A DNA stretch of 64,000 nt, taken from an uncultured Prolixibacteraceae bacterium (GTDB lineage: Bacteria > Bacteroidota > Bacteroidia > Bacteroidales > Prolixibacteraceae). Position 1 is the stretch's first letter. Each line of letters starts with the position of its first letter. The notes under the pieces were generated by a model. The model was not told the DNA's origin and searched no databases. It worked only from the letters and a program-made list of their open reading frames with translations. The stretch is from positions 41,184 to 105,183 of the forward strand of contig CALGIG010000071.1 in NCBI GenBank assembly GCA_937915865.1, given 5' to 3'. Shown here piece by piece: positions 8,563-54,094 of this stretch. The position numbers and the translations under genes were made by a program.

Positions 8563-8574
8563 AGGCTTACGGTT

Positions 8575-10009: not shown

Positions 10010-10112
10010 TCTTACGAAGTGTTTAATGTGAAACAAACGTGAGACTTGTCAATTCCTAACGTTTGCCTGAAAGGCATGAGCCAAAGAGTATTATTTTTAA
10101 AACAAATAGGGC

Positions 10113-11129: not shown

Positions 11130-11207
11130 GGTGAACCGGTTAAATTAGAATTAATCAATCTTAGTTTGTAAAATTTGGAATAAAGTGCCAAGGTCCAAAG
11201 GACGATT

Positions 11208-12245: not shown

Positions 12246-12273
12246 TGAATTTTAATTATTTACTTTGATATGA

Positions 12274-13305
12274 TTAATTCATAAGACTGTTTGCATATCC
12301 GAGGATTATCCATGATACAATGAGAATGACATTCCCTGTGATCAATATTTTTTTTGGTCCCGATATGCCCCTCCATTCACCTGATATCAACCCCCATATG
12401 GTGCTTACGATTAAAGAAAGTGCGAGAAACATGGTCCACCCGGCTGCAGGGCCAAGACTGCCCATGAGGGCTGCCCCCTGTCCGTAGATACCAAGGGCGG
12501 CAAACCAGAGGATTGATGTGATAACAGCAGATAAATAGCCTCTTTCGGCACCCCTTTGAGTTAAAGTACCGTATGACTTGTTCTTATACAAAAGATACGT
12601 AGCGTATCCGCCATTTACAAGAAATCCTCCCCAGAGGACTACCACCCAGGCGACAAGGCTGGCATTCTGAATTTTATTACCCATATCTGCTGCTGCTTTT
12701 ACCAGGGGTTGGGCATAAATGAATCCAACATTCAGTAAAGCCGCGGCAATCCCGTTGGCAATGGAGAAAAACACTCCGAACCAAAAGTATTTCCCGGTTT
12801 TGATATCAGATGAAACATTTTTCTTTCCTTTCATCTGCCTGTCGCGCATAATTCCGGCCAGGGTTATTACAATTATCCCGGAAAGCATAATAATAATACC
12901 TGCCATGATAAAGGGAAATGCCGGAAGTTTGGTCACATTCTCAATTCTGAGTAGCGGGACAACTGCTCCCATAATGGCTGCCAATCCCATTGTAATTCCA
13001 TAGGTCAGCGAAATGCCTATATAAGTTATTGCCAGCCCGAACAGGATGGAGCCGATACCCCATAAAGCCCCGAAAAGCATCGACCCTGCAATAATATTAG
13101 TACCGGTACCCCCGATTGCCTTCATAGTTCCTGTTACTGCGATTGAAGACCACAAAAGCGGAATGATAAGCATCCCTGTTACGGAAAATAAAACCCAGAA
13201 TGCTTCCCATGAAAAGGGGGAGAATTTTTTCATACCCAAACCATACGTACCTTGGAATATCCCGGCAATAAAAATCAGGATAAGTGATAAAAAGAAGTTA
13301 TTCAT
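12274..13305 (-). CDS. RhaT-family sugar:proton symporter (L-rhamnose/deoxy-sugar transporter type).
   Basis: 343 aa, about 10 TM segments. The N-terminus FLSLILIFIAGIFQGTYGLGMKKFSPFSWEAFW resembles RhaT-family proteins. Confidence 0.75.
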   Translation of the reverse strand: MNNFFLSLILIFIAGIFQGTYGLGMKKFSPFSWEAFWVLFSVTGMLIIPLLWSSIAVTGTMKAIGGTGTNIIAGSMLFGALWGIGSILFGLAITYIGISLTYGITMGLAAIMGAVVPLLRIENVTKLPAFPFIMAGIIIMLSGIIVITLAGIMRDRQMKGKKNVSSDIKTGKYFWFGVFFSIANGIAAALLNVGFIYAQPLVKAAADMGNKIQNASLVAWVVVLWGGFLVNGGYATYLLYKNKSYGTLTQRGAERGYLSAVITSILWFAALGIYGQGAALMGSLGPAAGWTMFLALSLIVSTIWGLISGEWRGISGPKKILITGNVILIVSWIILGYANSLMN

Positions 13306-13376
13306 GTCTTTATTTTTTGAAACTTATTTGTTTGAATCATAGTAAAACCATTCAATTATTCTTATTGTCAATCCAC

Positions 13377-14861
13377 CTATAATATCATTTCGCCAACATA
13401 AATATCCTGAAAATTGGGATTGCCTTCCAGGTTGATGTGCGTGGTTTTTCCCAGAATTTCTGTTCTGAGTTGCGAACCGGAAAACAGAAACATCTTAGCC
13501 CCGATCAGTGCCGTATTTCCCATTTTGTGAATTTTTTCCCCTTCGCTTCTTATCATTCCGGTAGCCACCACGTTTTCGATGCTGATGTAATTACCGAACC
13601 CGCCGGCAATGTAAATGGTCTGTATGTCGGCAACCCGTATTGAAAGATAGTTTGCAAGAATGGTCAGTCCTACTGCGATGGCAGCTTTGGCCAGTTGAAA
13701 TTCGTTAATATCCTTTTGAGTCAGGTTTACTTTTCCAGCGATGGAAATTTGCCCCTCACCCGAATTAATTTCGCCGAACATACCTACCCGTTCCAGCTTC
13801 CGTAGGATGGCCACAGCATCGATCAGCGCGCTCCCGCAAATTCCTTTGGGAGAGGCATTCCCGATCACACTGGGCACAATATTCCCGTCAACCAGATTTA
13901 ATGATGAAATTGCCCCGGTAACGGCGCGCATTCCTACCGAAATATTGGCCCCTTCAAATGCCGGGCCGGCCGCCGTCGAAGCACACACAATCCGGTTTTT
14001 GTTACCAACCACAATTTCTCCGTTGGTTCCCAGATCAATTAAAGCGGTATAATCTTCTTTTTGGTGAAGCCCGGTTGCAGCAATACCTGCCAGTATGTCG
14101 CTGCCAACAAAACTTCCAATCGAAGGATAAAAATGCACCTTTTCGATCACCTGAAAGTTCCATCCTAATTCTTGAGGTTCAAAGGTTTTTATTCCCAGGT
14201 TGTTGGTTTGGAACGGGTATGCTGACAGCGGGGTTACATCGCAATCGCTGAAAATAAGTTGCATGGCGGTATTGCCAACCAGGACTACTTTCCGGATGTC
14301 AACCGGGTGTTTTTTCAGCATCAGATTAATCATTGCCCCGATCGATGAGCGAATCATCCGGGTCATTTCGGTTGCCTGCCCGTCCAGGCAAGCCTGAATC
14401 CTGGAAATCAGGTCAGCCCCGAATTTAACCTGCGGGTTCAGCATGGTTTCAACGGCCAGCACTTTTGCCGACGACAAGTCGATCAATTGGGCTACCACCG
14501 TGGTTGTCCCCAGGTCGACCGCAATTCCGAAGCCTTTTTGCGGGTGAAAGTCAAATTCGCTCTCGTCGGCCAGGATCAGGTGGTTGAATTGTTCGATTTC
14601 GAGGGTAATATCGCCGGTACAACGGCTAAAACACGCCAGCCTCCATTCTGGAGAAAGGCCAAGCTGTTCGATCTTCTGCCGGTGGGCATCGGTGATTTTT
14701 ATTTCGCCGTCCAAAAGCCTGACCTTACATTTTCCGCAGGTCCCTTTTCCCCCGCAGGGAAACTCCACGCCATATTCATGCAACACATCAATTAACGGCG
14801 TTTGATCGTTGACTTCCAGTACTTTTCCCAGTGGCAATAAATGGATAATATGTTTTTTCAT
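13377..14861 (-). CDS. RACo-type reductive activator of corrinoid proteins ([2Fe-2S] ferredoxin domain plus ASKHA ATPase).
   Basis: 494 aa. The N-terminus has CGGKGTCGKCKV...LAC. ASKHA motifs are AVDLGTTTV and IDLGTNGEIV. The start overlaps the upstream URO-D gene stop (14858-14861). Confidence 0.85.
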   Translation of the reverse strand: MKKHIIHLLPLGKVLEVNDQTPLIDVLHEYGVEFPCGGKGTCGKCKVRLLDGEIKITDAHRQKIEQLGLSPEWRLACFSRCTGDITLEIEQFNHLILADESEFDFHPQKGFGIAVDLGTTTVVAQLIDLSSAKVLAVETMLNPQVKFGADLISRIQACLDGQATEMTRMIRSSIGAMINLMLKKHPVDIRKVVLVGNTAMQLIFSDCDVTPLSAYPFQTNNLGIKTFEPQELGWNFQVIEKVHFYPSIGSFVGSDILAGIAATGLHQKEDYTALIDLGTNGEIVVGNKNRIVCASTAAGPAFEGANISVGMRAVTGAISSLNLVDGNIVPSVIGNASPKGICGSALIDAVAILRKLERVGMFGEINSGEGQISIAGKVNLTQKDINEFQLAKAAIAVGLTILANYLSIRVADIQTIYIAGGFGNYISIENVVATGMIRSEGEKIHKMGNTALIGAKMFLFSGSQLRTEILGKTTHINLEGNPNFQDIYVGEMIL

Positions 14862-15880
14862 ATCGTATGGGTTGCGGCATTAAATTCATTCAATGCTTCA
14901 AAAAAGGCATAAATATTTTTAGGAGGGACACCCGGTGGCAAATCGCACCCTGAAGATAAGATGAAATTTGGATAATCCCTGGTAACTTCCAGAAGTTCAG
15001 CCGTTTTGTGCCTTACATATTCGGGCATACCTCTCTGTAATATATCAACCGGATCCAGATTGCCCATCACCAGGATATGGCTGGGAACCTGTTTTAGAAC
15101 CGTTTTCATATCAGCGGCATTACCAAAATGAAGAGCTGCTGCACCGGTCGATACCATAGACCGGGAAAGTTGTCCATTATGACCGCAATTGTGTAAGACT
15201 ATCAGAAAATTATCATCCTGTAATTCGTCAACTATTCCTTTAATATAAGCGGATGAGTAAATGTTGCACTCTTCCTCTCCCAGCAAACCCGCGGCTGGTT
15301 CTGCCACGATAATACCGTCGGCCCCTATTGATTTATAGGCCCGGATATAATCCCTGATAAAATGCGTGCATTTCTTCAACGTTGCGTGTACCATATCCGG
15401 GTCTGTAAAAATTGCTGTCATTATCTCTGTCATATCCAACAACCTGCCTGCCAGGGAAAATGGGCCGATACATCCGGGGAATACAGGAACATCGGTGATG
15501 TCTTTCATCGTCAATTCCGCTGCTTTAAGATATTCCCGTACCCTTTTTGAAGAAGAAATCTCTGGAACAGCTATTCCATTCATTTCTTGAATACTGTTGA
15601 CCAATCTTTCTTTGACTGTCGGAATTTCATCCTTTTCAAACCTGATACTGCACCCGAAGGCTTCTGCTTCCACAGTCAGGTCCATAATCATGGTCACTGC
15701 GGCAGAATTATAATTCTGGTGCAACGACCTAATCGCCCGGGCATGTTCACTGCCATTAGTGACTGCTTCAAATACCGTCGCCCCGGTAAATTCAATACCC
15801 GGGTTTGTCATTATTGGAATAGCAACCCTTTCCGGCAAACCAAGAATGTTTTTACACCACTGTCCAACTGATATTTGCAT
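14858..15880 (-). CDS. URO-D-family corrinoid methyltransferase.
   Basis: 340 aa. Has LHNCGHN plus SSGCDLPPGVP. Confidence 0.85.
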   Translation of the reverse strand: MQISVGQWCKNILGLPERVAIPIMTNPGIEFTGATVFEAVTNGSEHARAIRSLHQNYNSAAVTMIMDLTVEAEAFGCSIRFEKDEIPTVKERLVNSIQEMNGIAVPEISSSKRVREYLKAAELTMKDITDVPVFPGCIGPFSLAGRLLDMTEIMTAIFTDPDMVHATLKKCTHFIRDYIRAYKSIGADGIIVAEPAAGLLGEEECNIYSSAYIKGIVDELQDDNFLIVLHNCGHNGQLSRSMVSTGAAALHFGNAADMKTVLKQVPSHILVMGNLDPVDILQRGMPEYVRHKTAELLEVTRDYPNFILSSGCDLPPGVPPKNIYAFFEALNEFNAATHTI

Positions 15881-15972
15881 CCTTTCTTGTTTTTATAGTT
15901 AAGCAGACTTAGATTGATTCAAATGCTCAACGAGCCCTTGCGGATCAGGGAAACAGGCATTCGCTCCTATTT

Positions 15973-16992
15973 TCAAAATTTCCTTGCTGATTCTATAAGG
16001 GCGAAGATGTTTTCTTCGGGCGTAGTCGGTGGAATAGCACATCCCGCATTTAGAATGAAACGGTTTGTTTTGCTGAATACCTCCAGCAGTTCGTTTGTCT
16101 TTCGCCTTACCAGTTCCGGCGATCCCAGTGCGATGACGCCGCTGGGGTCGATGTTCCCGATAAAAGTTGCATGATCGTGCAAGATACTGAAAGCTTTATG
16201 GCTATCGGTTTTGTAGTCGATCTCAAAAGCATCCGCGCCGGTTTTCAGCATCAGTTCCAGTATCAGGTCGGTGTTGCCGCAAATGTGCAACGCGTAAGGT
16301 AATCCCTGTTTATGGGCTTCGTCAACGACCTTTTTTTCATAAGGCAAAGCAAATTCTTCATATTGTTCGGGCGAAATCATGGCAGGCCCGGCCACGCTGT
16401 CGCCGTTCGATACCATGTGCGCGTCCGCCTGCGCCATCAACCGGATAAACTGGCAGGTGGCATCTGTGCAGTAATCCAGCAGTTCGGCCAGTCGCGCCGG
16501 TTCGGCCATGTACAAATCCAGCATCAGTGCATCGGTTCCCCGTACCATGCTGGCCAGCGAAAACGGCGACTGGTCGCAGTTGCCCCTGACCAGTATTTCG
16601 TTTCCAAAATGCCCTCTCAGCAAACGCACCGCTTCGAGCCAGTTTTGAACGTACCTGTAATTTTCGACCTTTGGAGGCTTTAGCTTCTTTACATCTTCCA
16701 ATGAACCCAACATCCCGCGAAGCGGCCTGGCAGGCTCATCTTCCGGGAAATCGACAGATACCCCCAGGCTGCCGGCCAGGGTAACGGTATCCACGTCAAC
16801 CAGGATGCCGTCGTACCCATATTTCTCTATTGCATGGATAAAGGCCTTCGCTATTATTTTGGGATTTTCCCTGAATTCTTGCATCGACACGTTGATCTCC
16901 CTGGCTGCCAGCATGAAATTGTGCAGCATAACCGGGACCCGGTCGTGCGGTTCGCCTTTCAAGGCCGCCATTGTTCTTTCATATCCGTTCAT
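15973..16992 (-). CDS. URO-D-family corrinoid methyltransferase.
   Basis: I chose the start at ATG 16992 (MNGYERTMAALKGEPHDRVPV) because it aligns with the paralog N-termini and avoids overlap with the MFS gene. The ORF track extends to 17034. Has LHICGNT plus NAGCAIPPTTP. Confidence 0.85.
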   Translation of the reverse strand: MNGYERTMAALKGEPHDRVPVMLHNFMLAAREINVSMQEFRENPKIIAKAFIHAIEKYGYDGILVDVDTVTLAGSLGVSVDFPEDEPARPLRGMLGSLEDVKKLKPPKVENYRYVQNWLEAVRLLRGHFGNEILVRGNCDQSPFSLASMVRGTDALMLDLYMAEPARLAELLDYCTDATCQFIRLMAQADAHMVSNGDSVAGPAMISPEQYEEFALPYEKKVVDEAHKQGLPYALHICGNTDLILELMLKTGADAFEIDYKTDSHKAFSILHDHATFIGNIDPSGVIALGSPELVRRKTNELLEVFSKTNRFILNAGCAIPPTTPEENIFALIESARKF

Positions 16993-17003
16993 GTTGTTTA
17001 TTT

Positions 17004-18416
17004 TTATTCGTTTTCCAATAGATTCGTTTTCCATGTTTCTTCCATTTGTTCCAGGGTTTTTCCTTTGGTTTCAGGTACCATCTTCCATACGAAAATGAAG
17101 GATAGCAGGGCCATGCTCCCGAATATCCAGAACGACAGGGAATGATTGAACTTTTCCACCAGCCAGGCGTTCCGGTCAAGCAAGGGGAAAGTGGACGAAG
17201 CCACGTAATTCATGATCCACTGCACGGCCACGGCTACTGCCATTGCCTTGCCGCGAATGGCATTCGGGAAAATTTCCGACAGTAACACCCAGGTAACGGG
17301 GCCCCATGAAAAGGCAAAAGCTGCTACGAACCCCAAAACAGCTATCAGCGATACAATTCCCATGTGGTTGGTAAAAAAGGCAAAACCCAGGATAAACATG
17401 AAAACGGTCATCAAAGCTGAGCCGGCCAACAGCAGAGGTTTACGGCCAGCCCTGTCAACGGTGTAAATGGCGATAATGGTAAACAGCACGTTCACCGCCC
17501 CTACAAGGATGGCCCGGAACATCGACGAATCGGCATTGCTTCCCATGTTGCGGATAATTTCAGGGGCGTAATACATCATTACCTGGATGCCGGTAAGTTG
17601 CTGAAAGACCGATAGAAGTATCCCGATAATCAGCACTTTCTTTCCGAACGAAAGCAGTTTACCGGAATGGTGGTGTTCCAGCGACGATTTAATTTCGTCG
17701 AACTCCTTTTTTGCACCTTCCTGTCCGTTTAAACGGGAAAGGATGTCAAGCGCCTTTTCCTTTTTTCCTGAAAGCGCCAGCCACCGGGGGCTTTCGGGAA
17801 CAAACCAGAGCAATACAAAAAACAGGAACGCGGGGAAGGCCATCGAGGCAAACATCCACCGCCAGCCTGTAACTGTATCCCAGGCTTCATCGCCCGCGAG
17901 GGCGATGCGGTAATTCACGATATACACGATCAGTATGCCCAGCGTGACAGCCAACTGGTTCCACGACACTAGTCTGCCTCTAATGCCGGCCGGTGAAACC
18001 TCCGCGATATACATCGGCGAGAGTACCGACGCAAGCCCGATACCGGTTCCTCCCATCATCCGGAAAATGATGAACGAAAACATCACCGCTTTACCCCCCG
18101 AGGGGATGATTCCCATTTCCGGGATGGCCGAACCGAGGCTTGAAACCAGAAACAACAAGGCTGCCATCAACAACGAACGCTTCCGCCCGAACTTCCGGCT
18201 GAAATATCCGCCTAATGTGCTTCCTATCACGCAGCCGATCAGCGCGCAGGCTACAATAAATCCCAGCAGGGCATTGGCCGCTTTCTCCGGAAGCCCCATC
18301 GGGACGATGAAATATCGATTCAACGATTCAACCGCTCCCGAGATCACGGCTGTATCGTATCCAAACAGGAACCCGCCCAAAACGGCAACAAAAGCAATGC
18401 TATATATTTTTTTCAT
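17004..18416 (-). CDS. MFS sugar porter family transporter (sugar:H+ symporter).
   Basis: 470 aa, 12 TM-like segments. Signatures are GRKRSLL, PESPRWL and PETKGKTLEQME. Confidence 0.9.
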   Translation of the reverse strand: MKKIYSIAFVAVLGGFLFGYDTAVISGAVESLNRYFIVPMGLPEKAANALLGFIVACALIGCVIGSTLGGYFSRKFGRKRSLLMAALLFLVSSLGSAIPEMGIIPSGGKAVMFSFIIFRMMGGTGIGLASVLSPMYIAEVSPAGIRGRLVSWNQLAVTLGILIVYIVNYRIALAGDEAWDTVTGWRWMFASMAFPAFLFFVLLWFVPESPRWLALSGKKEKALDILSRLNGQEGAKKEFDEIKSSLEHHHSGKLLSFGKKVLIIGILLSVFQQLTGIQVMMYYAPEIIRNMGSNADSSMFRAILVGAVNVLFTIIAIYTVDRAGRKPLLLAGSALMTVFMFILGFAFFTNHMGIVSLIAVLGFVAAFAFSWGPVTWVLLSEIFPNAIRGKAMAVAVAVQWIMNYVASSTFPLLDRNAWLVEKFNHSLSFWIFGSMALLSFIFVWKMVPETKGKTLEQMEETWKTNLLENE

Positions 18417-43962: not shown

Positions 43963-44648
43963 TTTGTACTTCACGAGTTCGGGATTGAGTTTCAATGCGG
44001 GGAAAAGGGACCTGTGGCAAATGTAAAGTCAGAGTTATTTGGGGAGAAATTAAAACAACAGAAAATCACCTTCGGAAGATTGAACAACTGAGCCTGCCAT
44101 TCGACCGGCGACTAGCTCGTTTCAGTCAGTGCACCGTTGATATTACGCTTGAAATTGAGCAGTTTAATCACCTAATCCTGGCCGACGAGAGCGAATTTGA
44201 CTTTCATCCGCAAAAAGGCTTCGGAATTGCGGTCGACCTGGGGACAACCACGGTGGTAGCCCAATTGATCGACTTGTCCTCGTCAAAAGTGCTGGTCTTT
44301 GAAACCATGCTGAACCCGCAGGTTAAATTCGGGGCTGATTTGATTTCGAGGATACAGGCCTGCCTGGATGGACATGCTTCTGAAATGACCCGGATAATCC
44401 GTTTATCAATAGGAACAATGATTGAATTGATGCTGAAAGAACACGAAGTCGGTTTGCAAAAAGTGATCCTTGTTGGCAATACCGCCATGCATCTGATTTT
44501 CTGCAATTGTGACGTTACTCCTCTTTCGATGTACCCTTTTCACGCCAGCAATTTAGGGATGAAAATCTTCGTTCCGGAGGAATTGGGATGGGACTTTCAG
44601 GTTAACGGAACAATACAGTTTTATGGAACGAAGTTATTAAATAAATAA
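43963..44648 (+). pseudogene. Truncated, frameshifted copy of the RACo reductive-activase gene.
   Basis: Homologous to codons ~25-245 of 13377..14861. A G4 run at 43999-44002 replaces the G5 run of the intact gene and shifts the frame inside the CGGKGTCGKC cluster. Homology ends near 44610, and the ASKHA C-terminal half is missing. Confidence 0.85.
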
Positions 44649-44743: not shown

Positions 44744-45610
44744 TCACAACCCTTTAAACCGTTTCCGATATTCTGTTGGAGTAACTCCAGTTATTTTTCT
44801 GAACTGTTTATTGAAATGACTCAAATTGTTAAAACCACTATCGAGGCAAGCATCCAGAATACTCAGGCTCGGGTCCATCAACAGTTTGCAGGCAAATTCC
44901 ACTTTGATCTTGTTCAGGTATTCAAAAATAGTCAATCCCATATTTTGTTTAAAAAAGCGACAGAGCGACCCTTCTGCCATATTGACCATTTCGGACAGCC
45001 TTTCCAAATCAATTTCCTCCCGGTAATTGTTCATTAAATACTCGTGAATAGTTGCTATCCGCTTATTCTGTGAAGAGAATCTCGTGATTAAATATTCTTT
45101 ACTTGCCAAACTGACTAAAGAATCACTCTTCCCGATAATGTCCATCATCTTAAAAAAATGCAGCATTCGCTCAAAGCCTTTTAGATAGGGCATCTGAAGC
45201 ATCAGCTCGCTCACTTCGTTGAGTGTTTGGCCCATAATCTGAATGCCCTGTTCCGATAAGGAAAGGGCTTTCGCAACATGACAAAATTCTGGAAGGGCAA
45301 GCAACTGAGAACACAATACTTTTTCGGTAAACTGAAGGAAGACCATTTCAAGGGTACGGTTTGACCATATTCCTTGTCCCTTATCAGCAATCCACACATG
45401 AGGCAGATTCTTCCCCAGAAATACCAAATCACCTGGCTGAAAATCTTCTATTGAATCGGCAACAATCCGTTTCCCTGAACCTTCGGTAATGAAACTGATT
45501 TCGTAGTTATTGTGATAATGCCATGTACTTTTCTCCAGGTTATCCTGAAAAATCCCAATGAAAAAGGATTCGTCTTCGTTTAAAATGATTTGTTCGAACT
45601 GGGCCGACAT
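44744..45610 (-). CDS. AraC-family transcriptional regulator (cupin-like sensor plus HTH).
   Basis: 288 aa. The C-terminus FNNLSHFNKQFRKITGVTPTEYRK is a canonical AraC HTH. Confidence 0.9.
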   Translation of the reverse strand: MSAQFEQIILNEDESFFIGIFQDNLEKSTWHYHNNYEISFITEGSGKRIVADSIEDFQPGDLVFLGKNLPHVWIADKGQGIWSNRTLEMVFLQFTEKVLCSQLLALPEFCHVAKALSLSEQGIQIMGQTLNEVSELMLQMPYLKGFERMLHFFKMMDIIGKSDSLVSLASKEYLITRFSSQNKRIATIHEYLMNNYREEIDLERLSEMVNMAEGSLCRFFKQNMGLTIFEYLNKIKVEFACKLLMDPSLSILDACLDSGFNNLSHFNKQFRKITGVTPTEYRKRFKGL

Positions 45611-45728
45611 AGTGGTAATTATTGAACGAAAAGCACACGAAATGTGAATATCGCATCAAAACTAGTAAAAATTGATGTAGATTTCGTTTCTGTCTAAACC
45701 TATTTTTGTATCATAAACCTTAGTACAT

Positions 45729-47025
45729 CATGAGTGTCCATTAAAAAAATAAATACGTTCTTTGAAATCATTGATAATCTATATTTTGCAAGAGTTTGAG
45801 TAGCGTGACGATTTGAATTGATTAGGTTAGTTGGAAAAACCACTGACTATGAATCAAGGGAAATATGTTTTCGCCCAGATCGTTGAGTTTTTACCTCAGC
45901 GGATTTTCGATCGTTTTGTCGAAAAGTATGATGGCAATAAGTACGTTAAACATTTTTCGTGCTGGAACCAGCTACTCTGTATGCTTTTCGGTCAACTCAC
46001 CAATCGGGATAGTCTTCGGGATTTGATTGTTGCTCTGGATGCACATAGCAGTAAATCTTATCATCTGGGCTTCGGCATAAGCGTTACAAGAAGTAATTTG
46101 GCAAAAGCCAATGAAACCAGAAACAGCAAAATATTTGAGGCGTTTGCTTATCATCTTATCGCTATTGCCAGGAAAAAAAAGGCCAACAATGATTTTGAGA
46201 TTAAAGGCAAAATCTATGCTTTTGACTCATCAACCATTGACCTGTGTCTGAGTGTATTCTGGTGGGCGACCTTTCGTAAAACCAAAGCTGGGATAAAACT
46301 TCATACTCTTTTTGATATAACAACTCAAATTCCAGCCTTTGTGCATATTACACCTGCCACGATGAATGATATGAAGGCAATGGATTATCTGGTCTATGAG
46401 CAGAATGCATTCTATATTTTTGATAGAGGATATGTGGATTACACCAGACTCTATAAGATAACTGTTCATTCCGCTTTTTTCGTCATACGGGCAAAATCAA
46501 ACCTCAAATTTAACCGGATGTATTCCTTGAAGATTGACAAAAGCACCGGAGTTTTATGTGATCAGATTGGCAAACTGAAAGGCTTTTATGTATCCAAGCA
46601 GTATCCTGTGAAACTGAGAAGAGTCAAGTTTTACGATAAGGAAACCAAACGGACTTTCGTTTTTCTAACCAATAATTTTCAGGTCACATCCGATCAGGTA
46701 GCATTGCTATACAAAAACCGTTGGCAGATAGAACTTTTTTTCAAATGGATCAAACAACACCTGAAGATAAAATCCTTTTGGGGAACTTCAGAGAACGCTG
46801 TCCGTATTCAAATTTATAGTGCCATTATTACGTATTGCTTGGTAGCTATCGTTGGAAACGAACTGAAAATAGAGCGGTCAACCTACGAAATATTACAGGT
46901 AATTGGCATATCCCTACTGGACAAAACGCCTATAAATGAACTACTTGCAAATACAGATTACAAAGATGTCAAAGAACTTGATTGTAAACAACTGTCACTC
47001 AGCTTATTTTAAGTGGACAGTCATG
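45729..47025 (+). mobile_element. IS4-family insertion sequence nested in the left end of the outer IS. The 9-bp target-site duplication is TTAGTACAT.
   Basis: The terminal IRs are CATGAGTGTCCA (45729-45740) and TGGACAGTCATG (47014-47025), matching at 11 of 12 positions. The direct repeat ttagtacat sits at 45720-45728 and 47026-47034. Confidence 0.8.
45849..47012 (+). CDS. IS4-family DDE transposase.
   Basis: The start MNQGKYVFAQIVEFLPQRIFDRFV is typical of one Bacteroidota IS4 group. It also has the YKNRWQIELFFKWIKQHLKI signature. Confidence 0.9.
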   Translation: MNQGKYVFAQIVEFLPQRIFDRFVEKYDGNKYVKHFSCWNQLLCMLFGQLTNRDSLRDLIVALDAHSSKSYHLGFGISVTRSNLAKANETRNSKIFEAFAYHLIAIARKKKANNDFEIKGKIYAFDSSTIDLCLSVFWWATFRKTKAGIKLHTLFDITTQIPAFVHITPATMNDMKAMDYLVYEQNAFYIFDRGYVDYTRLYKITVHSAFFVIRAKSNLKFNRMYSLKIDKSTGVLCDQIGKLKGFYVSKQYPVKLRRVKFYDKETKRTFVFLTNNFQVTSDQVALLYKNRWQIELFFKWIKQHLKIKSFWGTSENAVRIQIYSAIITYCLVAIVGNELKIERSTYEILQVIGISLLDKTPINELLANTDYKDVKELDCKQLSLSLF

Positions 47026-47143
47026 TTAGTACATGACAAAAAAATAAATGGTTGATTATCAGCAAAATAAGTGTTAAAATATTTGTTTAAAACTCTGAAT
47101 ATCAGTATCTTACAAGAAATTACCACACTTCGAAGTAAGAATA

Positions 47144-48232
47144 ATGACACCCAGAGTAGAGTCTAAAAGTAGTGAATTAGTTTCCATTTTCCATGAGCAA
47201 TCAGGTTGGAATCTAGCACGTGTTAAGTTCTTTGTTTTAATGATCAGTGCGCTGTGTAAAGTGCAAACAGTTGGTTTTGAGAAGTTAGCTACAGCATTCG
47301 ATTGCAATGCCAGTACCAGTTCGTCCCTGAGGAGAATACAACGGTTTATGGCAGGTTATCTTCTGGATACAGATTTGATTGCAAGGTTGATATTTAGGTT
47401 ATTACCAAATAAACCTCCTTTTCGCTTAGCTATGGACCGCACGAATTGGAAGTTTGGGCAGCAGAATATCAATGTATTGGTGATTGCAGTTGTTTATCAC
47501 GGAGTTGCTTTTCCTCTGTTGTTTAAGTTGTTGCCAAAATTTGGCAATTCAAATACCAGTGAACGCATTGAATTGATTGAGCGGTTTATCCGCCTTTTTG
47601 GTACTGCATCGCTGGATTGTTTGACCGCAGATCGGGAGTTTGTAGGAGAAAGATGGATCAAATACCTGAATGATAACCGGATTCGATACTATATCCGCAT
47701 TCGCGAAAACTTTTGGGTTATGCAACCTCACAATGGCAAGCAAGTCAAAGCCAGTTGGTTGTTTACCGATTTGCCAATGAATGGTTGCCGGGTGAATCAC
47801 CGGATTGTTTATCTGAACAATCAACTGTGTTATCTCTCTGCATCAAAAGGAAAAGACAAAGACGGAAAACCTGAATTGCAGATTGTTATCTCATTCAACA
47901 AGCCAGACAGTGCGCTGGAGTTATATAAAGAGCGCTGGCAAATTGAAACAGCGTTCAGAGCACTGAAAACAAGCGGGTTCAATATTGAAGATACCCACTT
48001 GACCGAAATAGAAAGAATTGAAAAACTATTTGCACTGGTGATCGTTGCTTTTACCTGGGCATATCTGGTTGGTGATTATTTGCACAGATATATCAAACCA
48101 ATCCCGATAAAGAAGCATGGAAATAAGGCTAAAAGTTTATTCAAATATGGACTAACTTATATTGCAACTGTCCTTTTAAACGCTTTCTTTCAAGATGATA
48201 TCGATATATTCAAATTTTTGTCATGTACATAG
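47144..48232 (+). CDS. IS4-family DDE transposase (outer element).
   Basis: 362 aa with the YKERWQIETAFRALKTSGFNIEDTHL signature. The stop codon lies inside the right IR. Confidence 0.9.
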   Translation: MTPRVESKSSELVSIFHEQSGWNLARVKFFVLMISALCKVQTVGFEKLATAFDCNASTSSSLRRIQRFMAGYLLDTDLIARLIFRLLPNKPPFRLAMDRTNWKFGQQNINVLVIAVVYHGVAFPLLFKLLPKFGNSNTSERIELIERFIRLFGTASLDCLTADREFVGERWIKYLNDNRIRYYIRIRENFWVMQPHNGKQVKASWLFTDLPMNGCRVNHRIVYLNNQLCYLSASKGKDKDGKPELQIVISFNKPDSALELYKERWQIETAFRALKTSGFNIEDTHLTEIERIEKLFALVIVAFTWAYLVGDYLHRYIKPIPIKKHGNKAKSLFKYGLTYIATVLLNAFFQDDIDIFKFLSCT

Positions 48233-48268: not shown

Positions 48269-48937
48269 ATGGAAGAATTACTCGAAGAACTACTCGAAGC
48301 CGTCGAACTAGGGAAAGTGGATTTGAAATCACCGTTTCCGCCCCAGCTTCGAGGCATGGATGGCGCCCTCGAACTTACAGTAAAAGCGTTGGAGTCCGGT
48401 GTTGGTCCCCAGCAAATACTTGAAAGTGCATTGGTTCCTGCTATGGACCGGGTGGGTAAAAAATTCTCCGAAAACAAGATTTTCGTACCTCAAATGCTCA
48501 TGTCGGCCAAAGCTATGGGCGCTTCGATGACCCAGCTCAAACCATTTTTCACTTCCGGCGAAATTAAAACAAAGGGCACGTTTATTATCGGAACCGTTAA
48601 AGGCGATTTGCACGACATCGGTAAAAACCTGGTAGCCATGATGGTGGAAGGAGCAGGTTGGACAGTTATCGATCTTGGCGTTGATGTTCCTTCGACAAGA
48701 TACCTTGAGGCCCTGAGTAACAACCCGGGAGCAGTTGTGGCTTTATCGGCCCTGCTGACCACCACGATGGTTTATATGGGAGAGATTGTATCCGACATCA
48801 AAGCACAGATTCCTGATGCAAAAGTTTTTATTGGCGGAGCACCGGTTAACAACGATTTCTGTAAAAAGATAGGAGCCGATTTCTACGCTCCAGATCCACA
48901 AGGCGTGGTGGAACACCTGAACAAACTGGCCTCTTAG
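48269..48937 (+). CDS. mtaC: Corrinoid (cobalamin-binding) protein, MtaC-like.
   Basis: 222 aa with GDLHDIGKN (DxHxxG), SALLTTT and IGGAP. It is a paralog of 5835..6506 and lies directly upstream of the MtaB-like gene. Confidence 0.88.
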   Translation: MEELLEELLEAVELGKVDLKSPFPPQLRGMDGALELTVKALESGVGPQQILESALVPAMDRVGKKFSENKIFVPQMLMSAKAMGASMTQLKPFFTSGEIKTKGTFIIGTVKGDLHDIGKNLVAMMVEGAGWTVIDLGVDVPSTRYLEALSNNPGAVVALSALLTTTMVYMGEIVSDIKAQIPDAKVFIGGAPVNNDFCKKIGADFYAPDPQGVVEHLNKLAS

Positions 48938-48989
48938 TAAATTAACTACGGATTATAAATTAACCTAATTGCCATAAAAATATGGCAAA

Positions 48990-50429
48990 ATGGGGTTGTT
49001 TGCCCAGTGTTATAGCAACAACAAATTTAGTAATACATTAAAAAACAGTAATGTGAAGTATAAAAGTTTAGTAATAACCAATCCTGAAGACCTGATGTTC
49101 GGGATTGCCCCCAATCCGGTAAAGACGAGGCGGGGACTTGAAATCGGGGGCGGACAGGTTTATGCCGAATTGAATTTTACCCTCCCGGTAATGAGTATCA
49201 ATGAAAATACTCTTTCTGAAGTGTACGGCCACTACCGCGAAATTACCGAAGGCGCCCTTGAACGCGCTCTTGAGCTGAACTCGAAAGGTGTTGTCCTGGA
49301 ACTGGAAACGCTGCTTGAAATGACCAAAACTCCAAAGATTGGAATCGGGATTGTTAAGATCATGAATGAGATTTGTGAAGACTATTACCAAAAATATGGC
49401 CTTGCTTCAGAAATCCGCCTGACACCTAACGACCTGCGCGAATTTGAGCGCCCGGCCAAACAACGAACTTCGGCATATTTAGAGCCGATGATGGAACTAT
49501 TTGAGCAAGGGATGATTGAAGGCGGTGACTTACTTTCAATAGAGAGTACCGGCGGAAAAGAAGTTTCGGACGAAGCGTTGATGATGTGTGACGTTAAAGG
49601 AGTTGTTTTTGCTTTGGCCGTTCTTGGAGTGAGGGATATGCAGTTTCTGTGGAAAAAAATCGTATCTCTGGCCATTAAGTATAACAAAATTGCTGCCGGT
49701 GATTCTGCCTGCGGATTTGCCAATACGGCCATGGTCCTGGCCGAAAAAAAATACATTCCGCGGGTATTTGCTGCTTTGGTGCGCGTAATTTCGGTGGTTC
49801 GTTCGATTGTCGCCATGGAAGAAGGCGCCATTGGCCCTGATAAAGATTGCGGTTACGAAGGCCCGTTCCTGAAAGCCATTACCGGAATCCCGATTTCGAT
49901 GGAGGGGAAAACTGCCGCCTGTGCACACCTCAGTCCAATCGGCAATATTGCCTCTGCCTGTTGTGATTTGTGGAGTAATGAATCGGTGCAGAACATTAAA
50001 TTGCTTTCAGGTATGGCCCCGACAGCTTATATGGAGCAACTCGAATACGATGCGCGGCTGATAAATCAGGCTTTAATAGCCGGAACAGTTCCCAGCCATA
50101 TTTTGCAACAATTACTGGTTGCTTCCGATGTTTATACCGACCCGCAGGCGTTGATCCTTTCGCCGGAAAATGTGATTCGTATATCGAAAGAATTGGTAAA
50201 AGGCGATTCGTATGTGGCTAATGCTCGGAATGGCGCTTTGGCAGCCCTGGATATTATTGAAGAGGTTCTCCGGTCAGGGAAAATGAAACTTTCAGAACTG
50301 GAAACCGGTTATCTCCCGATCCTTCGCGATGAATTAAACAGCATTCCCGAAAATGAAAGCGATTTTGTGGAGATGATGATGCCGCTTATCGATCAAAGCA
50401 AATTCATCCCGGCCGAATACGGATTGTAA
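48990..50429 (+). CDS. mtaB: Methanol:corrinoid methyltransferase MtaB-family protein.
   Basis: 479 aa, collinear by eye with methanogen MtaB as I remember it. Shared segments are LLSIESTGGKEV, AAGDSACGFANTAM, GPDKDCGYEG, MEGKTAACAH and CCDLWSNES. The first ~21 codons may be an over-extension, since an in-frame GTG lies at 49053. Confidence 0.8.
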   Translation: MGLFAQCYSNNKFSNTLKNSNVKYKSLVITNPEDLMFGIAPNPVKTRRGLEIGGGQVYAELNFTLPVMSINENTLSEVYGHYREITEGALERALELNSKGVVLELETLLEMTKTPKIGIGIVKIMNEICEDYYQKYGLASEIRLTPNDLREFERPAKQRTSAYLEPMMELFEQGMIEGGDLLSIESTGGKEVSDEALMMCDVKGVVFALAVLGVRDMQFLWKKIVSLAIKYNKIAAGDSACGFANTAMVLAEKKYIPRVFAALVRVISVVRSIVAMEEGAIGPDKDCGYEGPFLKAITGIPISMEGKTAACAHLSPIGNIASACCDLWSNESVQNIKLLSGMAPTAYMEQLEYDARLINQALIAGTVPSHILQQLLVASDVYTDPQALILSPENVIRISKELVKGDSYVANARNGALAALDIIEEVLRSGKMKLSELETGYLPILRDELNSIPENESDFVEMMMPLIDQSKFIPAEYGL

Positions 50430-50480: not shown

Positions 50481-51422
50481 ATGGAAAAAATTCCGGTAAA
50501 TATCATTTCCGGGTTCCTCGGTTCAGGGAAAACTACGGCAATCATACGGCTTTTAGAGCAAAAACGACCAGAGGAATGCTGGGCCATCGTGGTGAACGAA
50601 TTCGGGAAAGTGCCCATCGACGGGCAAACCCTGCAATCCAAATCAGTCACCGGCTCGGTTTTCGATATTTTGGGCGGGTGCATCTGCTGTTCGGCCAAAA
50701 TCTACCTGAAAGAAAACCTTGAAAAGATCGTTGAAACCAAAAAATTTGACCGGATCATCATCGAACCCAGCGGATTGGGTGGTATTGAAATGGTTTCTGA
50801 AATGGTTGGGCTAATCCCGCAACTCAGTTTAATGCCGGTTATTTGCATGGTGGACATTACCGGTACAGACAACCCTAAATTCCGGCGAATTCCGATATGC
50901 AGCGCTCAAATCAGGATGTCGGACAGGATTGTTTTTAGTAAATGCGACCTGCTGGATTCTCCCGGGCAGCAGGATGAACTGGTAACCAGGTTCAAATTGG
51001 CATTTCCCGATAAGCATTCCTGTTTTGTTGGCACAAAAGTGACCATCGCGGTTTTAAACCCACCTGATCCGGAGGAAAAAACGAAAGAACCGAATTCAAA
51101 AACCTATTTTATCCCGGCACATCACCTGACCGACGGGAACTTTAGGGAGCAGGCCTTTCAATTTGAAGCCGACCGGATTTTTGCTCCGGAAGCTTTAAAA
51201 ACTGTTTTTGCCGCAAATCCGTCCATCATCCGGGCCAAAGGACATATCTGTACCACCAGCGGCTGGGTGCTGTTCAACTATACACTGTCGGGGTACCATT
51301 CAGAACCTTGCCCGGAAAAAGAACAAAGTGAGATTATTATTATTGCTGAAAAATCAGGTTCTGACCAGTTCCAAAACCTCGAAGCCGACATTGAGAAATC
51401 AGGTGTTTGGGGTACTTTTTGA
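50481..51422 (+). CDS. COG0523/CobW-family G3E GTPase.
   Basis: I chose the start at ATG 50481 (MEKIPVNIISGFLGSGKTT). It has the canonical GCICC metal motif. It is a paralog of 3523..4425. Confidence 0.85.
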   Translation: MEKIPVNIISGFLGSGKTTAIIRLLEQKRPEECWAIVVNEFGKVPIDGQTLQSKSVTGSVFDILGGCICCSAKIYLKENLEKIVETKKFDRIIIEPSGLGGIEMVSEMVGLIPQLSLMPVICMVDITGTDNPKFRRIPICSAQIRMSDRIVFSKCDLLDSPGQQDELVTRFKLAFPDKHSCFVGTKVTIAVLNPPDPEEKTKEPNSKTYFIPAHHLTDGNFREQAFQFEADRIFAPEALKTVFAANPSIIRAKGHICTTSGWVLFNYTLSGYHSEPCPEKEQSEIIIIAEKSGSDQFQNLEADIEKSGVWGTF

Positions 51423-51445: not shown

Positions 51446-51991
51446 ATGAAAAAACATAACTTACAAATTAACCAACAAAACTTTACGGTACATGCAGACG
51501 GACATCAGTTTGATGTAGGCAAAGCTGTCTGCAAAGAATTAAAGGGGACAGAACGAGCAGCATTTTATGTTTGTACAGCAGGCAAAACTATTAGTGAAGA
51601 ATCTTCCAGGTTACTATACGGCGAAGATCCCATTTTGGGATACATTTTGGATATTATGGGAAGTATGATTACCGAGGCCGCCTGTGATTTGCTTCAGTCT
51701 CGGTTAAAGAAAGAGATGGAATTAACAAATGAGTTATTGACCAATCGATATAGTCCAGGGTACTGTCAATGGCCGGTAGCCGATCAGCATAAGCTATTTT
51801 CATTGTTTCCTGAAAATGTTTGTGGAATATCGCTGTCGGATTCGGCCCTGATGTCTCCCCTGAAATCAGTAAGTGGCATTATTGGAATTGGAGAAAAGGT
51901 AAAATTCAGGAAGCATGTTTGCACGCTCTGTTCAAGTAAAGATTGCATTTATCGTAGAATCAAGAAGGATATAAAAAAACTTAAATATTAA
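51446..51991 (+). CDS. MetH activation-domain-like protein with a C-terminal Cys cluster (shorter paralog).
   Basis: I chose the start at ATG 51446. It has NRYSPGYCQWPVADQHKLFSLF and CTLCSSKDCIYR. It lacks the ~55 N-terminal residues present in the 2816..3526 product. Confidence 0.7.
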   Translation: MKKHNLQINQQNFTVHADGHQFDVGKAVCKELKGTERAAFYVCTAGKTISEESSRLLYGEDPILGYILDIMGSMITEAACDLLQSRLKKEMELTNELLTNRYSPGYCQWPVADQHKLFSLFPENVCGISLSDSALMSPLKSVSGIIGIGEKVKFRKHVCTLCSSKDCIYRRIKKDIKKLKY

Positions 51992-52378: not shown

Positions 52379-54094
52379 TCAATTCATTGCAGTGACAAAA
52401 TCGAGACCAAAAAAAATCAAGACTCGATAACAAACTGAATTTAAGCTTAATAACATTCCAAAACATGCCCTTGTTCTGGGCACCAAAGCGGATGTTTCGT
52501 CAATATTGACAAAACATCCGCTTTTATTTTGTTCCAAAACCCGCTTCAGTTGCGGGATTGCTGAGAAAAAAGTGTTCACTCTCGTGGTTCGATATTGATC
52601 GAATTCTCGATTATAGATAATTCCTTCAGGAAATAGCAAACTTTGAAATACCTGCTTGCCATTAAAATCCAAATCATTCCACATTATCAACGGATTACAG
52701 CATACTTTAACAGCAAAGTCAATCACTTTTTTGAGGTTCGAGAAATATCCGTCACTCTTATTCAATTCCCGTTCAATCTCAAAACATTCCTTTTCATATT
52801 TGGGTCTGAATTTATCGTAAAGATTACGGTCAATCTCTCCAATGACAAATCTTTCCTCAATAGCCTCCAATTTCTTTTTAACCTCAGCCAAGTTACTTTT
52901 TAATACTCTGGTATCTTTAAAACTGGATGCAAAGAAAACATTCATTTGCTCCTCTAACTGAATTCTGACTATTTCAAACTCATCCTTTCCTATTTGAAAA
53001 CATTTCAATAGGTCCCGAAATAAATCATGCATTGCTTTCGCACTTCGGTTTACTTTGCATCCTTTGGTGCTGCATTTGTAATAATACAGTCCTTTCTTTT
53101 TGACTAAGTATCCTGTTAGAGGTTGTTTGCATTTATCACATTGAGTAAAAATTTTCAGAGGTAGGTTGTCATTTTCTTTGTCGTGCACAAAACCCTGACT
53201 TCTCTTTTCCTCCCTGATATTGTGTACCGCCAAAAACAGTTCTTTTGAAACTAATGGTTCGTGCCTCCCTTCTATGACCTGACCAGGTATCATTTTACTC
53301 GTAAGAAGCCCACAATAAAAGGGATTTAAGAATATCTCATTCAGCCGTTTTTCGTTAATATTTAGTCCCTTGCGGAACAAATGTCTCGAAATTTCTGCAT
53401 TAGAGAACTTCTTGTAAACTTTCAATTCAAACGCACTTTTCAATAGCTTTCCTTGTTCATTAACCACCAGATTACGCTGATTAGCCTTCCCTTTATTTAA
53501 ATCCTTGTATCCAAATGGTATTCGCCACACCCAATACCCATTCAAAAGATGTTCCTTCATTCCTGTAATTACCTTATCCCGCCTTAACTCATTGTCCATT
53601 TGCCCAAATAGGAACAATATCTTCTGCTGAAAAGAACCTGCTGGGGTTCTCGGGTCAAGTTCCTGTGTTGCAGCCAAGGTCATAACCCCATATTTTTTTA
53701 ATAGATCTTCTGCAATAGAAGCCCCGTTAATGCCAGAGCGTGAAAAACGTTCATACGAATAAACTATCACATAATTGATGTTCTTTGTACGTTTTACGAA
53801 GGTCAGCATCCGGTTAAACTCTTTCCTATCATCTGTTTTAGCAGACTCATAAGTTCCGCCAAAATATCCAACCACATTCAGGCCTCTTCGATCTGCATAT
53901 ATCTCGCAATGTTTCTTCTGTGATGCCAGACTGGTATTGTCTTCCTGTTCTGCTGACGATACTCGAGTATAAACAACCGCATTATTCCCCTCCTGAAATT
54001 GCTTTGGAGCCTGAGGAGCAAACTGTTTAAATAGGCTTAAATCACTCATTGCAATAATATATTGAGTTAAATCGAAGATAGAATTTTGCAACAA
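52379..54094 (-). CDS. Large serine recombinase (resolvase/invertase N-domain, recombinase domain and zinc ribbon).
   Basis: 571 aa. It has AVVYTRVSSAEQ with a catalytic Ser context, and later CDKCKQPL...YYYKCSTKGC. An alternative start lies at 54049. Confidence 0.88.
   Translation of the reverse strand: MLQNSIFDLTQYIIAMSDLSLFKQFAPQAPKQFQEGNNAVVYTRVSSAEQEDNTSLASQKKHCEIYADRRGLNVVGYFGGTYESAKTDDRKEFNRMLTFVKRTKNINYVIVYSYERFSRSGINGASIAEDLLKKYGVMTLAATQELDPRTPAGSFQQKILFLFGQMDNELRRDKVITGMKEHLLNGYWVWRIPFGYKDLNKGKANQRNLVVNEQGKLLKSAFELKVYKKFSNAEISRHLFRKGLNINEKRLNEIFLNPFYCGLLTSKMIPGQVIEGRHEPLVSKELFLAVHNIREEKRSQGFVHDKENDNLPLKIFTQCDKCKQPLTGYLVKKKGLYYYKCSTKGCKVNRSAKAMHDLFRDLLKCFQIGKDEFEIVRIQLEEQMNVFFASSFKDTRVLKSNLAEVKKKLEAIEERFVIGEIDRNLYDKFRPKYEKECFEIERELNKSDGYFSNLKKVIDFAVKVCCNPLIMWNDLDFNGKQVFQSLLFPEGIIYNREFDQYRTTRVNTFFSAIPQLKRVLEQNKSGCFVNIDETSALVPRTRACFGMLLSLNSVCYRVLIFFGLDFVTAMN

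Follow-up and report, generated by a model that had tools for sequence, protein, structure and literature searches.

Where the methyl group of methanol would go in a member of the Bacteroidota is a question raised by two adjacent genes in a 64,000-nucleotide stretch (hereafter the window) of contig CALGIG010000071.1, from an uncultured Prolixibacteraceae bacterium. The genes encode a corrinoid protein (48269..48937, + strand) and an MtaB-family zinc methyltransferase (49053..50429, + strand), and an initial annotation had described them as an MtaC/MtaB methanol:corrinoid methyltransferase pair whose methyl fate in such a host would be new biology. We found that both the genes and the host had been identified correctly and that the claim to new biology holds only in part: this MtaB is unexceptional, strongly conserved and from a family already known, it is common and already annotated in the phylum, and the copy at hand is damaged, so that what stands of the claim is the question of direction and methyl acceptor in the Bacteroidota cassette. 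The answer that we favour is that MtaB would load methanol onto the corrinoid protein and that a URO-D (MtaA-like) methyltransferase would pass the methyl group to a thiol-type acceptor, and we would place this explanation, taken as a whole, marginally below an even chance.

The open reading frame (ORF) at 48990-50429 matched the Pfam MtaB family (PF12176) from end to end in a profile search (533 bits, E 7.8e-160, profile positions 3-460 of 460, cut-off 25), and its product aligned collinearly with Methanosarcina barkeri MtaB (Protein Data Bank (PDB) entry 2I2X chain A; E 5.5e-89, residues 23-465 against 5-445), with a BLASTP identity of 37%, which bears out its assignment to MtaB. The Glu of LSIESTG, the Cys of DSACGFA and the Cys of DKDCGYE aligned with residues 164, 220 and 269 of 2I2X chain A, confirming that the three positions named in the initial annotation are equivalent to Glu164, Cys220 and Cys269 of the M. 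barkeri enzyme, which we take to be its zinc ligands (an assignment that we attribute to Hagemeier et al. 2006). These three columns were invariant in 10 Bacteroidota relatives and kept in most representatives of the family. Although the ORF opens at ATG 48990 (479 aa), this start would prepend 21 residues that are not conserved; because the relatives begin at M-K-Y-K, with an ATG in 80 of 84 sequences and with upstream stop codons in 75 of 84, and the window has a GTG at the same codon (49053, a start unique among the 84), the true product is probably the 458-aa protein encoded by 49053-50429.

The mtaB gene is under very strong purifying selection, with a dN/dS of 0.027-0.045 against its nearest relatives at a dS of ~0.9. 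In a gap-free alignment of 80 sequences, 211 of the 458 MtaB columns were invariant, and the window copy carried 1 private change at an otherwise invariant column compared to 1-3 in the other genomes; since this count is within the range of the other genomes, we rejected decay of the mtaB coding sequence. The gene directly upstream encodes a protein of 222 aa with both Pfam domains of a corrinoid protein (B12-binding_2 and B12-binding) and a His-on DxHxxG motif, D-L-H-D-I-G, as the initial annotation had stated; it ends 52 nt before ATG 48990 and 115 nt before GTG 49053. A zinc enzyme of the MtaB family next to a His-on corrinoid protein is almost certainly a genuine MT1-type module, and the reaction predicted for MtaB on the adjacent protein would be CH3OH + Co(I)-protein <-> CH3-Co(III)-protein + H2O.

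The name MtaC is nevertheless one that the corrinoid protein holds by position only, since it is nearer to generic bacterial corrinoid proteins. Its best PDB match was 1Y80, a cobalamin-binding protein of Moorella (160 bits), compared to 90 bits for M. barkeri MtaC (2I2X chain B), and it scored 107 and 114 bits against the MtaC equivalogs NF040655 and NF040669, whose cut-offs of 420 and 450 were not reached. The top NCBIfam model was MtgC-like, with 187 bits and thus also under its cut-off (370).

The host call is supported by SusC (27543-30956) and SusD (25723-27519) genes identified with Pfam, an encoded ECF sigma/anti-sigma pair, a type IX secretion system (T9SS) sorting domain (Por_Secre_tail) at 38592-39584, RteC at 1199-2050 and a CTnDOT-type tra block at 56354-63603 (TraG, DUF4141, TraJ, TraM and TraN), while GH97 and GH71-like genes are also present on the contig. 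The contig is therefore from Bacteroidota, and of the three outcomes named beforehand as fatal to the call (a poor MtaB score, non-equivalent zinc positions and a contig from elsewhere) none was observed. The DNA of the araC gene that precedes the pair was 83% identical to that of a Prolixibacter metagenome-assembled genome, and the GC content gave no sign of horizontal origin, being 0.44 at 48-50 kb compared to 0.37-0.51 across the window. The window is also contained, in reverse orientation, in NODE_315 of ENA assembly ERZ724078 (77,987 bp, coverage 16). From its taxonomy, the host is expected to lack the Wood-Ljungdahl pathway and methanogenesis, including coenzyme M (CoM) and methyl-CoM reductase.

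We scanned one genome per GTDB species and recovered at least 518 loci with close MtaB relatives. In the best 80 of these, which were analyzed in detail for their neighbors by clustering of ORFs, MtaB was 78-94% identical to the window protein and 78 of the 80 were titled as Bacteroidota, the other 2 being untitled metagenome chromosomes. The taxa represented were Prolixibacteraceae, Paludibacter, Draconibacterium, Mangrovibacterium, Mariniphaga, Tangfeifania, Sunxiuqinia, Lentimicrobium, Dysgonomonadaceae, Tannerellaceae and Candidatus Symbiothrix, and they included the cultured carriers Draconibacterium aestuarii Z1-6 (L046) and Sunxiuqinia indica (L067). The pair is thus neither an oddity nor a rare transfer, because at least 518 loci of species representatives encode close relatives and the best 80 are essentially all Bacteroidota. 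In the protein database there were 6,705 matches at E<=1e-20, of which the top 120 were 83-96% identical and many had already been named "methanol--corrinoid methyltransferase" by NCBI or JGI. The family as a whole is small, with 612 matches at E<=0.001 among 1.84 billion representatives of 50%-identity clusters. The statement that MtaB is known only from methanogens and some acetogens and sulfate reducers is outdated: metagenome surveys have placed mtaB-type genes in many non-methanogenic phyla (PMC10805028; PMC12343361), and mtaB transcripts have been traced to heterotrophic side populations (PMC10130057). Our full-text search of the literature found no paper that deals with the MtaB of Bacteroidota or with sugar demethylation by corrinoid-dependent enzymes, the matches being methanogen or rumen studies.

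The named full-length neighbors of the Bacteroidota proteins were those of Chthonomonadales (48% identity), the acetogen Eubacterium maltosivorans (47%) and Armatimonadota (45%), while the archaeal enzymes of M. barkeri, Methanobrevibacter smithii, Methanomethylophilus and Hodarchaeota formed a separate branch at 33-39%. A neighbor-joining tree of the 50%-identity representatives likewise gave a tight Bacteroidota clade apart from the archaeal one and did not resolve a donor lineage. The apparent sister of the Bacteroidota clade, P0141, matched the MtaB profile over its N-terminal half only and diverged after residue ~259, and we therefore make no claim of origin from the tree. A further family member, P0158 (L095:8001-11717, 1238 aa), carries its MtaB domain at residues 787-1236 behind a 780-residue N-terminal region, with no corrinoid genes nearby; we considered this N-terminal domain as a clue and rejected it, as it had no Pfam match and its context was uninformative.

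Across the Bacteroidia, mtaB lies in a conserved cassette that runs from a divergent araC through the corrinoid protein, an occasional URO-D/MtaA-like gene, mtaB, cobW and RACo to an occasional gene resembling the MetH activation domain. Counting only loci with enough flank on the relevant side of mtaB, we found the corrinoid protein upstream in 67/73 and the upstream, divergent AraC gene in 63/73; downstream, CobW was present in 43/57, RACo in 36/57 and the activation-like gene in 8/57, and URO-D was immediately upstream of mtaB in 21/80. Outside these limits the genes vary from genome to genome, with ilvBNCD, cobalamin salvage and sulfur assimilation among them, and the cassette is therefore self-contained.

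The methyltransferases that accompany MtaB provide the evidence on where the methyl group might go. A folate-type methyltransferase (Pterin_bind, PF00809) was found neither in the scanned genes of the window nor in the neighbor families that recur at the best 80 Bacteroidota loci. Instead, and unremarked in the initial annotation, an MtaA-like URO-D gene is part of the cassette in about a quarter of the relatives, and five URO-D genes are present elsewhere in the window, with none at the mtaCB locus. The same partner was seen in the non-acetogen outgroups inspected, namely Chthonomonadales, Armatimonadota (in the order MtaB-URO-D), one JGI contig (corrinoid protein-MtaB-URO-D), GCA_900096875.1 and the locus L096. 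Because it is URO-D and not Pterin_bind that accompanies MtaB in Bacteroidota and in these outgroups, the wiring in Bacteroidota is, as judged from gene content, of the methanogen type and not of the acetogen type. The URO-D of the Bacteroidota cassette also keeps the H-x-C...C of MtaA. In Chthonomonadales (L090:7372-14020, DATIKM010000157.1), the run of genes was corrinoid protein-MtaB-unknown-URO-D-homocysteine S-methyltransferase (PF02574, 218 bits)-DUF1638, which reads like a modular methionine synthase with MtaB in place of the folate domain. Together with the H-x-C...C site and the MetH-like accessory protein of the cassette, this PF02574 gene hints at a thiol acceptor, such as homocysteine; a homocysteine S-methyltransferase domain was not found in the Bacteroidota loci, while genes of the O-acetylhomoserine-sulfhydrylase type (Cys_Met_Meta_PP) flank the cassette in one group of Prolixibacteraceae.

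On this basis, the pathway would begin with methanol, for instance from pectin methyl esters, being loaded by MtaB onto the corrinoid protein. A URO-D methyltransferase with an H-x-C...C zinc site would then transfer the methyl group to a thiol-type acceptor, of which homocysteine is the most attractive candidate, and neither tetrahydrofolate (THF) nor CoM would be involved. Corrinoid protein that had become oxidized to Co(II) would be rescued by RACo through ATP-dependent reduction, by the MetH-activation-like protein through S-adenosylmethionine-dependent remethylation, or by both, and the COG0523 GTPase would metallate the zinc enzyme. Taken together, the direction and the acceptor, that is, methanol uptake with handover to a URO-D methyltransferase, are a tentative choice that we hold at close to, and not above, evenly balanced confidence.

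A number of observations weigh against this pathway. For substrate, direction and acceptor alike, we infer the role from homology and gene order. The window protein scored 426 bits against the NCBIfam MtaB equivalog NF040651 and did not reach its cut-off of 720; by this measure it is a member of a distinct bacterial subfamily and no orthologue of the archaeal isozymes. As ~75% of the Bacteroidota cassettes are without a URO-D gene, the second methyltransferase (MT2) is no fixed part of the operon, and the URO-D partners of different lineages are 20-30% identical, with several lacking the H-x-C, a variability that fits substrate-specific MT1 enzymes better than one conserved MT2. Furthermore, several MtaB loci are surrounded by genes for sugar breakdown and uptake (GH67, GH127, GH31, GH141 and transporters of sugars), which simple methanol uptake does not predict, and there is no obvious energy gain for a fermenter from methylation of a thiol. 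The window copy itself carries four lesions and may be silent. Separately, we considered whether the URO-D partners of the different phyla form one co-evolving family, and rejected this given their low identity.

Comparison with characterized systems places the cassette between several of them. The M. barkeri system of MtaB/MtaC, MtaA and RamA is alike in the full-length Pfam family, in the three zinc-ligand columns, in the adjacent His-on corrinoid protein, in a putative partner methyltransferase of the URO-D (MtaA-like) type and in an activase of the RACo/RamA type. It differs in that MtaB is only 37% identical (equivalog score 426 vs 720) and that the window corrinoid protein is of a generic bacterial kind, with 222 aa and scores far under the MtaC equivalogs; in addition, the Bacteroidota host degrades glycans and would not be expected to have CoM or methyl-CoM reductase, and the cassette adds CobW and MetH-activation-like genes. 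The mta operon of the acetogens Eubacterium limosum/maltosivorans and Acetobacterium woodii shares with the cassette the closest named acetogen MtaB (47% identical), and the Eubacterium locus likewise has corrinoid proteins, with a cobW-like gene, RACo and a regulator of the AraC type (PocR) close by. In contrast to the cassette, where URO-D takes that place, the acetogen operon carries its own Pterin_bind MtaA directly after MtaC. Acetogen MtaA methylates THF for the Wood-Ljungdahl pathway, and deletion of mtaA or mtaC from the E. limosum operon abolished growth on methanol (PMC10223405).

The Type 1 mlp clusters of Kountz and Balskus (PMC10418091) resemble the cassette in combining a URO-D/MtaA-like protein, a corrinoid protein and a reductive activase in non-methanogenic anaerobes without a THF methylase, and a thiol or selenol acceptor has been proposed for them (PMC10418091). 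Further points of likeness are found in the window, where one URO-D protein (4479-5831) has a thioredoxin-like domain and the CobW-like proteins weakly match a selenoprotein model. On the other hand, the mlp clusters contain no MtaB, 73% of their carrier genera are Firmicutes and no word beginning with Bacteroid- is mentioned (PMC10418091). MetH and its split forms are related through the corrinoid protein, which is homologous to the B12 domains of MetH (metH model, E 3.8e-35), and through the stand-alone activation-domain-like protein with an R-x-S-P-G-Y motif that often closes the cassette, to which the Chthonomonadales relative adds a homocysteine-binding module; unlike MetH, the cassette is without a folate-binding module, and MtaB takes the place of the methyl donor. 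The O-demethylases of Acetobacterium dehalogenans and Desulfitobacterium hafniense, which transfer the methyl groups of phenyl methyl ethers to THF by way of a pterin-binding MT2, have the same four-part layout of MT1, corrinoid protein, MT2 and activating enzyme and likewise use methyltransferases of the URO-D superfamily, and the window corrinoid protein matched PDB 4JGI, presumably the Desulfitobacterium O-demethylase corrinoid protein, with an E of 1.7e-30. The O-demethylase systems are not known to contain MtaB.

The setting of several MtaB loci among glycan genes raises the possibility that MtaB operates in reverse as a methyl sink: URO-D proteins would act as MT1 enzymes and transfer to the corrinoid protein the ether methyl groups of O-methyl sugars (4-O-methyl-glucuronate, 2-O-methyl-fucose or 2-O-methyl-xylose, for example), and MtaB would discharge CH3-Co(III) to water and free methanol, a net, corrinoid-catalyzed hydrolysis of methyl ethers without THF, CoM or the Wood-Ljungdahl pathway. 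GH67 releases 4-O-methyl-glucuronic acid from xylan, and at the locus of GCA_900096875.1 (L094:5617-12491, FMJZ01003794.1), whose MtaB homologue is 46% identical, the order ABC transporter-corrinoid protein-RACo-MtaB-GH67 alpha-glucuronidase-URO-D, with the GH67 gene starting 10 nt before the mtaB stop, suggests a link between the MtaB family and this sugar acid. In termite- and insect-gut Bacteroidales (L065:3414-19378, L071:536-10490 and L077:530-6054), a short run of MtaB-corrinoid protein-activation-like protein, lacking AraC, CobW and RACo, is embedded among GH127, GH31, GH141 and MGH1-like hydrolases, MFS/SSF transporters, rhaM and divergent URO-D genes. MtaB is, moreover, constant (45-50% between phyla and 79-96% within Bacteroidia) where the URO-D partners vary (20-30%), URO-D genes occur several times in one genome, with the five of the window lying by sugar transporters, rhaM and a polysaccharide utilization locus (PUL), and a folate-type MT2 was seen in none of the Bacteroidota loci examined. 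The MtaB half-reaction is presumably near equilibrium, so that low methanol would pull it backwards. All MtaB enzymes that have been characterized nevertheless serve methanol consumption, the URO-D of the Bacteroidota cassette has the thiol-activating H-x-C...C site of the MtaA type, and the Chthonomonadales cluster contains a real acceptor enzyme in its homocysteine methyltransferase. Glycan genes are so numerous in the genomes of Bacteroidota that chance alone should bring some of them next to the cassette, and most cassettes lie beside unrelated genes, such as ilv or cobalamin salvage. We therefore consider reverse operation possible, though unlikely.

The same glycoside hydrolase contexts (L094 and the termite-gut loci), together with a cassette regulator that combines an AraC-type protein and a cupin sensor, as is often seen in sugar regulons, could also be taken to mean that the Bacteroidota protein is itself an O-methyl-sugar:corrinoid methyltransferase, in which zinc would activate the oxygen of the sugar methyl ether and URO-D would be the MT2. 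We regard this as very improbable, and as less likely than reverse operation, because MtaB is collinear with the methanol-specific enzymes without insertions, and its 79-96% identity across Bacteroidia whatever the neighbors, together with the 211 invariant columns out of 458, points to a single small substrate that does not vary. A further route would follow the acetogens and Desulfotomaculum, with an unlinked methyltransferase forming CH3-THF that is then oxidized through MetF, FolD and Fhs or assimilated. The folate C1 enzymes are near-universal in bacteria, and this is the sole bacterial fate with experimental support (PMC5770442; PMC10223405). It is nonetheless improbable here, given that Pterin_bind is missing from the recurrent neighbors of the 80 Bacteroidota loci and from the window genes scanned, whereas the acetogen operon carries such a gene directly after MtaC. 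Methanol uptake with handover to URO-D is thus the reading that we retain for the family, while the individual copy in the window has to be assessed on its own state.

This copy, as the initial annotation did not note, is a rearranged derivative of the cassette, situated amid CTnDOT-type transfer genes, a serine recombinase and insertion sequence (IS) elements. As a reference we used the Bacteroidota relative locus L002, to whose orthologue the window corrinoid protein is 90% identical. The AraC-family regulator with a cupin sensor (44744..45610, - strand; HTH_18, HTH_AraC and Cupin_2) is 78% identical to that of L002. Downstream of it, the sequence TATTTTTG at 45701..45708 (+ strand) matches TAnnTTTG, which we take to be the Bacteroidota -7 consensus, and is the probable -7 box of the native mtaC promoter; the same motif precedes the mtaC ATG by 39-48 nt in 28 of 65 relatives that were examined, but because its count shows no window-wide enrichment, the evidence for the box is positional only. 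Two tandem IS4-family elements follow directly (45723..48232, + strand), with transposases at 45831-47012 and 47144-48232 (transpos_IS4_1, 279 bits, and transpos_IS4_2, 243 bits, in NCBIfam) and inverted repeats at 47029-47049/48208-48228. The 13-nt direct repeat ATCATAAACCTTA is present on both sides of the pair (45710-45722 and 48233-48245), and removal of 45723-48245 in silico gave a 135-bp araC-mtaC intergenic region nearly the same as that of L002. As this excision restores an L002-like region with its TAnnTTTG box, the IS pair separates mtaC from its likely promoter. The two transposase genes share the direction of mtaCB, and the second one stops 36 nt before the mtaC ATG, so that read-through transcription from the IS elements into mtaC is conceivable; an outward promoter with a TAnnTTTG motif was not found on the + strand between 46817 and the mtaC ATG at 48269.

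Downstream of mtaB, the CobW/COG0523-type GTPase metallochaperone (50481..51422 within the ORF 50442-51422, + strand; cobW and CobW_C in Pfam) has the CxCC motif GGCICCS, is intact from Met14 and matches the L002 CobW over its full length at 52%; it probably delivers metal to the zinc methyltransferase or to the corrinoid protein. The canonical RACo gene that follows cobW in L002 is absent, and the next gene is a truncated stand-alone MetH-activation-domain-like gene (51446..51991, + strand; Met_synt_B12) that is without its first ~59 codons: residues 60-228 of the L002 protein align to 51458-51964 at 87%, and residues 1-59 have no match at that position of the window. A remnant of a RACo/RamA-type activase lies instead at 43995..44648 (+ strand) and comprises Raco_middle only, that is, residues 38-245 of ~494 with the ASKHA ATPase domain missing, at 77% identity to the RACo encoded at 13377-14861 and 76% to that of L002 over these residues. 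The locus itself therefore retains only a fragment of its reductive activase, with the intact RACo 33 kb away. The sequence at 43840-43990 (+ strand), just 5′ of this fragment, resembles by eye the remnant of a tyrosine recombinase/integrase N-terminus. On the right, a large serine recombinase (52379..54094, - strand; Resolvase and Recombinase) borders the module and is followed by the tra block, which places the module in a mobile, mosaic region. A third transposase gene, of the IS4/IS5 type (32871-33638, + strand; DDE_Tnp_1 and DUF4096), lies between the PUL regulators and the second GH97 gene. RteC lies at one end of the window and the tra block at the other, and the PUL, both corrinoid clusters of the window, the three IS elements and the serine recombinase may all have been carried in by a conjugative transposon or lie beside one.

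Independently of how the enzyme functions elsewhere, this copy may be silent and decaying, a leftover carried on a mobile element. The IS pair was inserted right after the -7 box, RACo is gone after cobW and a fragment of it lies upstream of araC, the activation-like gene is truncated, the ATG of mtaB has become GTG, the sole such case in 84 sequences, and the surroundings consist of the serine recombinase, IS elements and Tra genes. Against this, mtaC, mtaB and cobW are whole and free of frameshifts and stops, the 1 private MtaB substitution is inside the range of 1-3 in the other genomes, the co-oriented transposases with their 36-nt gap to mtaC would permit read-through, and elsewhere in the window there are intact genes for RACo, a corrinoid protein, CobW and an activation-like protein. 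We judge a silent remnant to be unlikely on balance. If the copy is active, we infer that it is transcribed through the IS elements and borrows RACo (13377-14861) and a URO-D methyltransferase (14858-15880) from the second corrinoid cluster. Taken alone, this IS-disrupted, partly deleted copy tells us little that the family does not already show; it is useful mainly because it draws attention to the clade and to the PUL-linked corrinoid cluster nearby.

That second corrinoid methyltransferase cluster is joined to the PUL and occupies 2816..17034 (- strand), with gene families assigned by profile search. From the low coordinates, it encodes a MetH-activation-like protein, a CobW-like protein, a URO-D-thioredoxin-like fusion, a corrinoid protein that is 64% identical to the window MtaC, a Zn-ADH, an amidohydrolase_2 protein, an aldo-keto reductase, rhaM, two URO-D proteins, a RhaT-like transporter, RACo and two further URO-D proteins, beyond which lie an MFS sugar porter, a PhyH protein, GHL6, GH97, a beta-helix protein and SusD/SusC. 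The activation-like paralogue (2816-3526, - strand) is full-length and matches PDB 1J6R, a stand-alone chain that was deposited under the name methionine synthase and is presumably TM0269 of Thermotoga maritima. RACo (13377..14861, - strand; Fer2, Raco_middle and RACo_C_ter) is the only intact activase of the window, 79% identical to that of L002 over 494 aa, and is a candidate to reactivate the window MtaC in trans. The URO-D (MtaA/CmuA-like) gene (14858..15880, - strand; URO-D, 199 bits) encodes the closest homologue in the window of the cassette URO-D (50-52% to those of L026, L060, L001 and L002), and its H-x-C...C aligns with HiCG and GC of MtaA (4AY7), although it scored 127 bits against the NCBIfam MtaA equivalog with a cut-off of 400. 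The cluster could thus supply both an activase and a partner methyltransferase in trans if mtaCB is expressed.

The fusion protein encoded at 4479-5831 (- strand) has a C-terminal thioredoxin-like domain with weak matches to models of thioredoxin-like (seleno)proteins with a HUIPC motif, and its gene adjoins that of the CobW-like GTPase at 3523-4425, an arrangement that recalls the methyl-sulfur/selenide hypothesis for the mlp clusters. Both CobW-like proteins of the window (3523-4425 and 50442-51422) scored weakly against a CobW-related selenoprotein model. Taken together, the region 2816-31000 (- strand) looks like a locus for anaerobic, B12-dependent demethylation of O-methyl-(deoxy)sugars; we found no literature on a PUL-fused corrinoid demethylation system, and this cluster may be more novel than the MtaC/MtaB pair.

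In guts, sediments and wetlands, methanol is one of the main substrates on which methylotrophic methanogens live, and mtaB has been put forward, and also applied, as a marker of anaerobic methanol users (PMC5770442; PMC10805028). Given a conserved clade in at least several hundred species of Bacteroidota, metagenomic counts of mtaB cannot stand for methanogen or acetogen potential. The clade also means that Bacteroidota fermenters have a B12-dependent methyl metabolism, and that abundant glycan degraders would compete for methanol, or would produce it if the enzyme runs in reverse. The cultured carriers D. aestuarii and S. indica make the question of direction and acceptor directly testable. 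In the more far-reaching case, which we consider doubtful, MtaB would be a universal methyl sink in Bacteroidota and other saccharolytic non-acetogens, acting within polysaccharide utilization as a B12-dependent, oxygen-independent "methyl-ether hydrolase"; if this is true, glycan degraders would supply methylotrophic methanogens with methanol that does not come from pectin.

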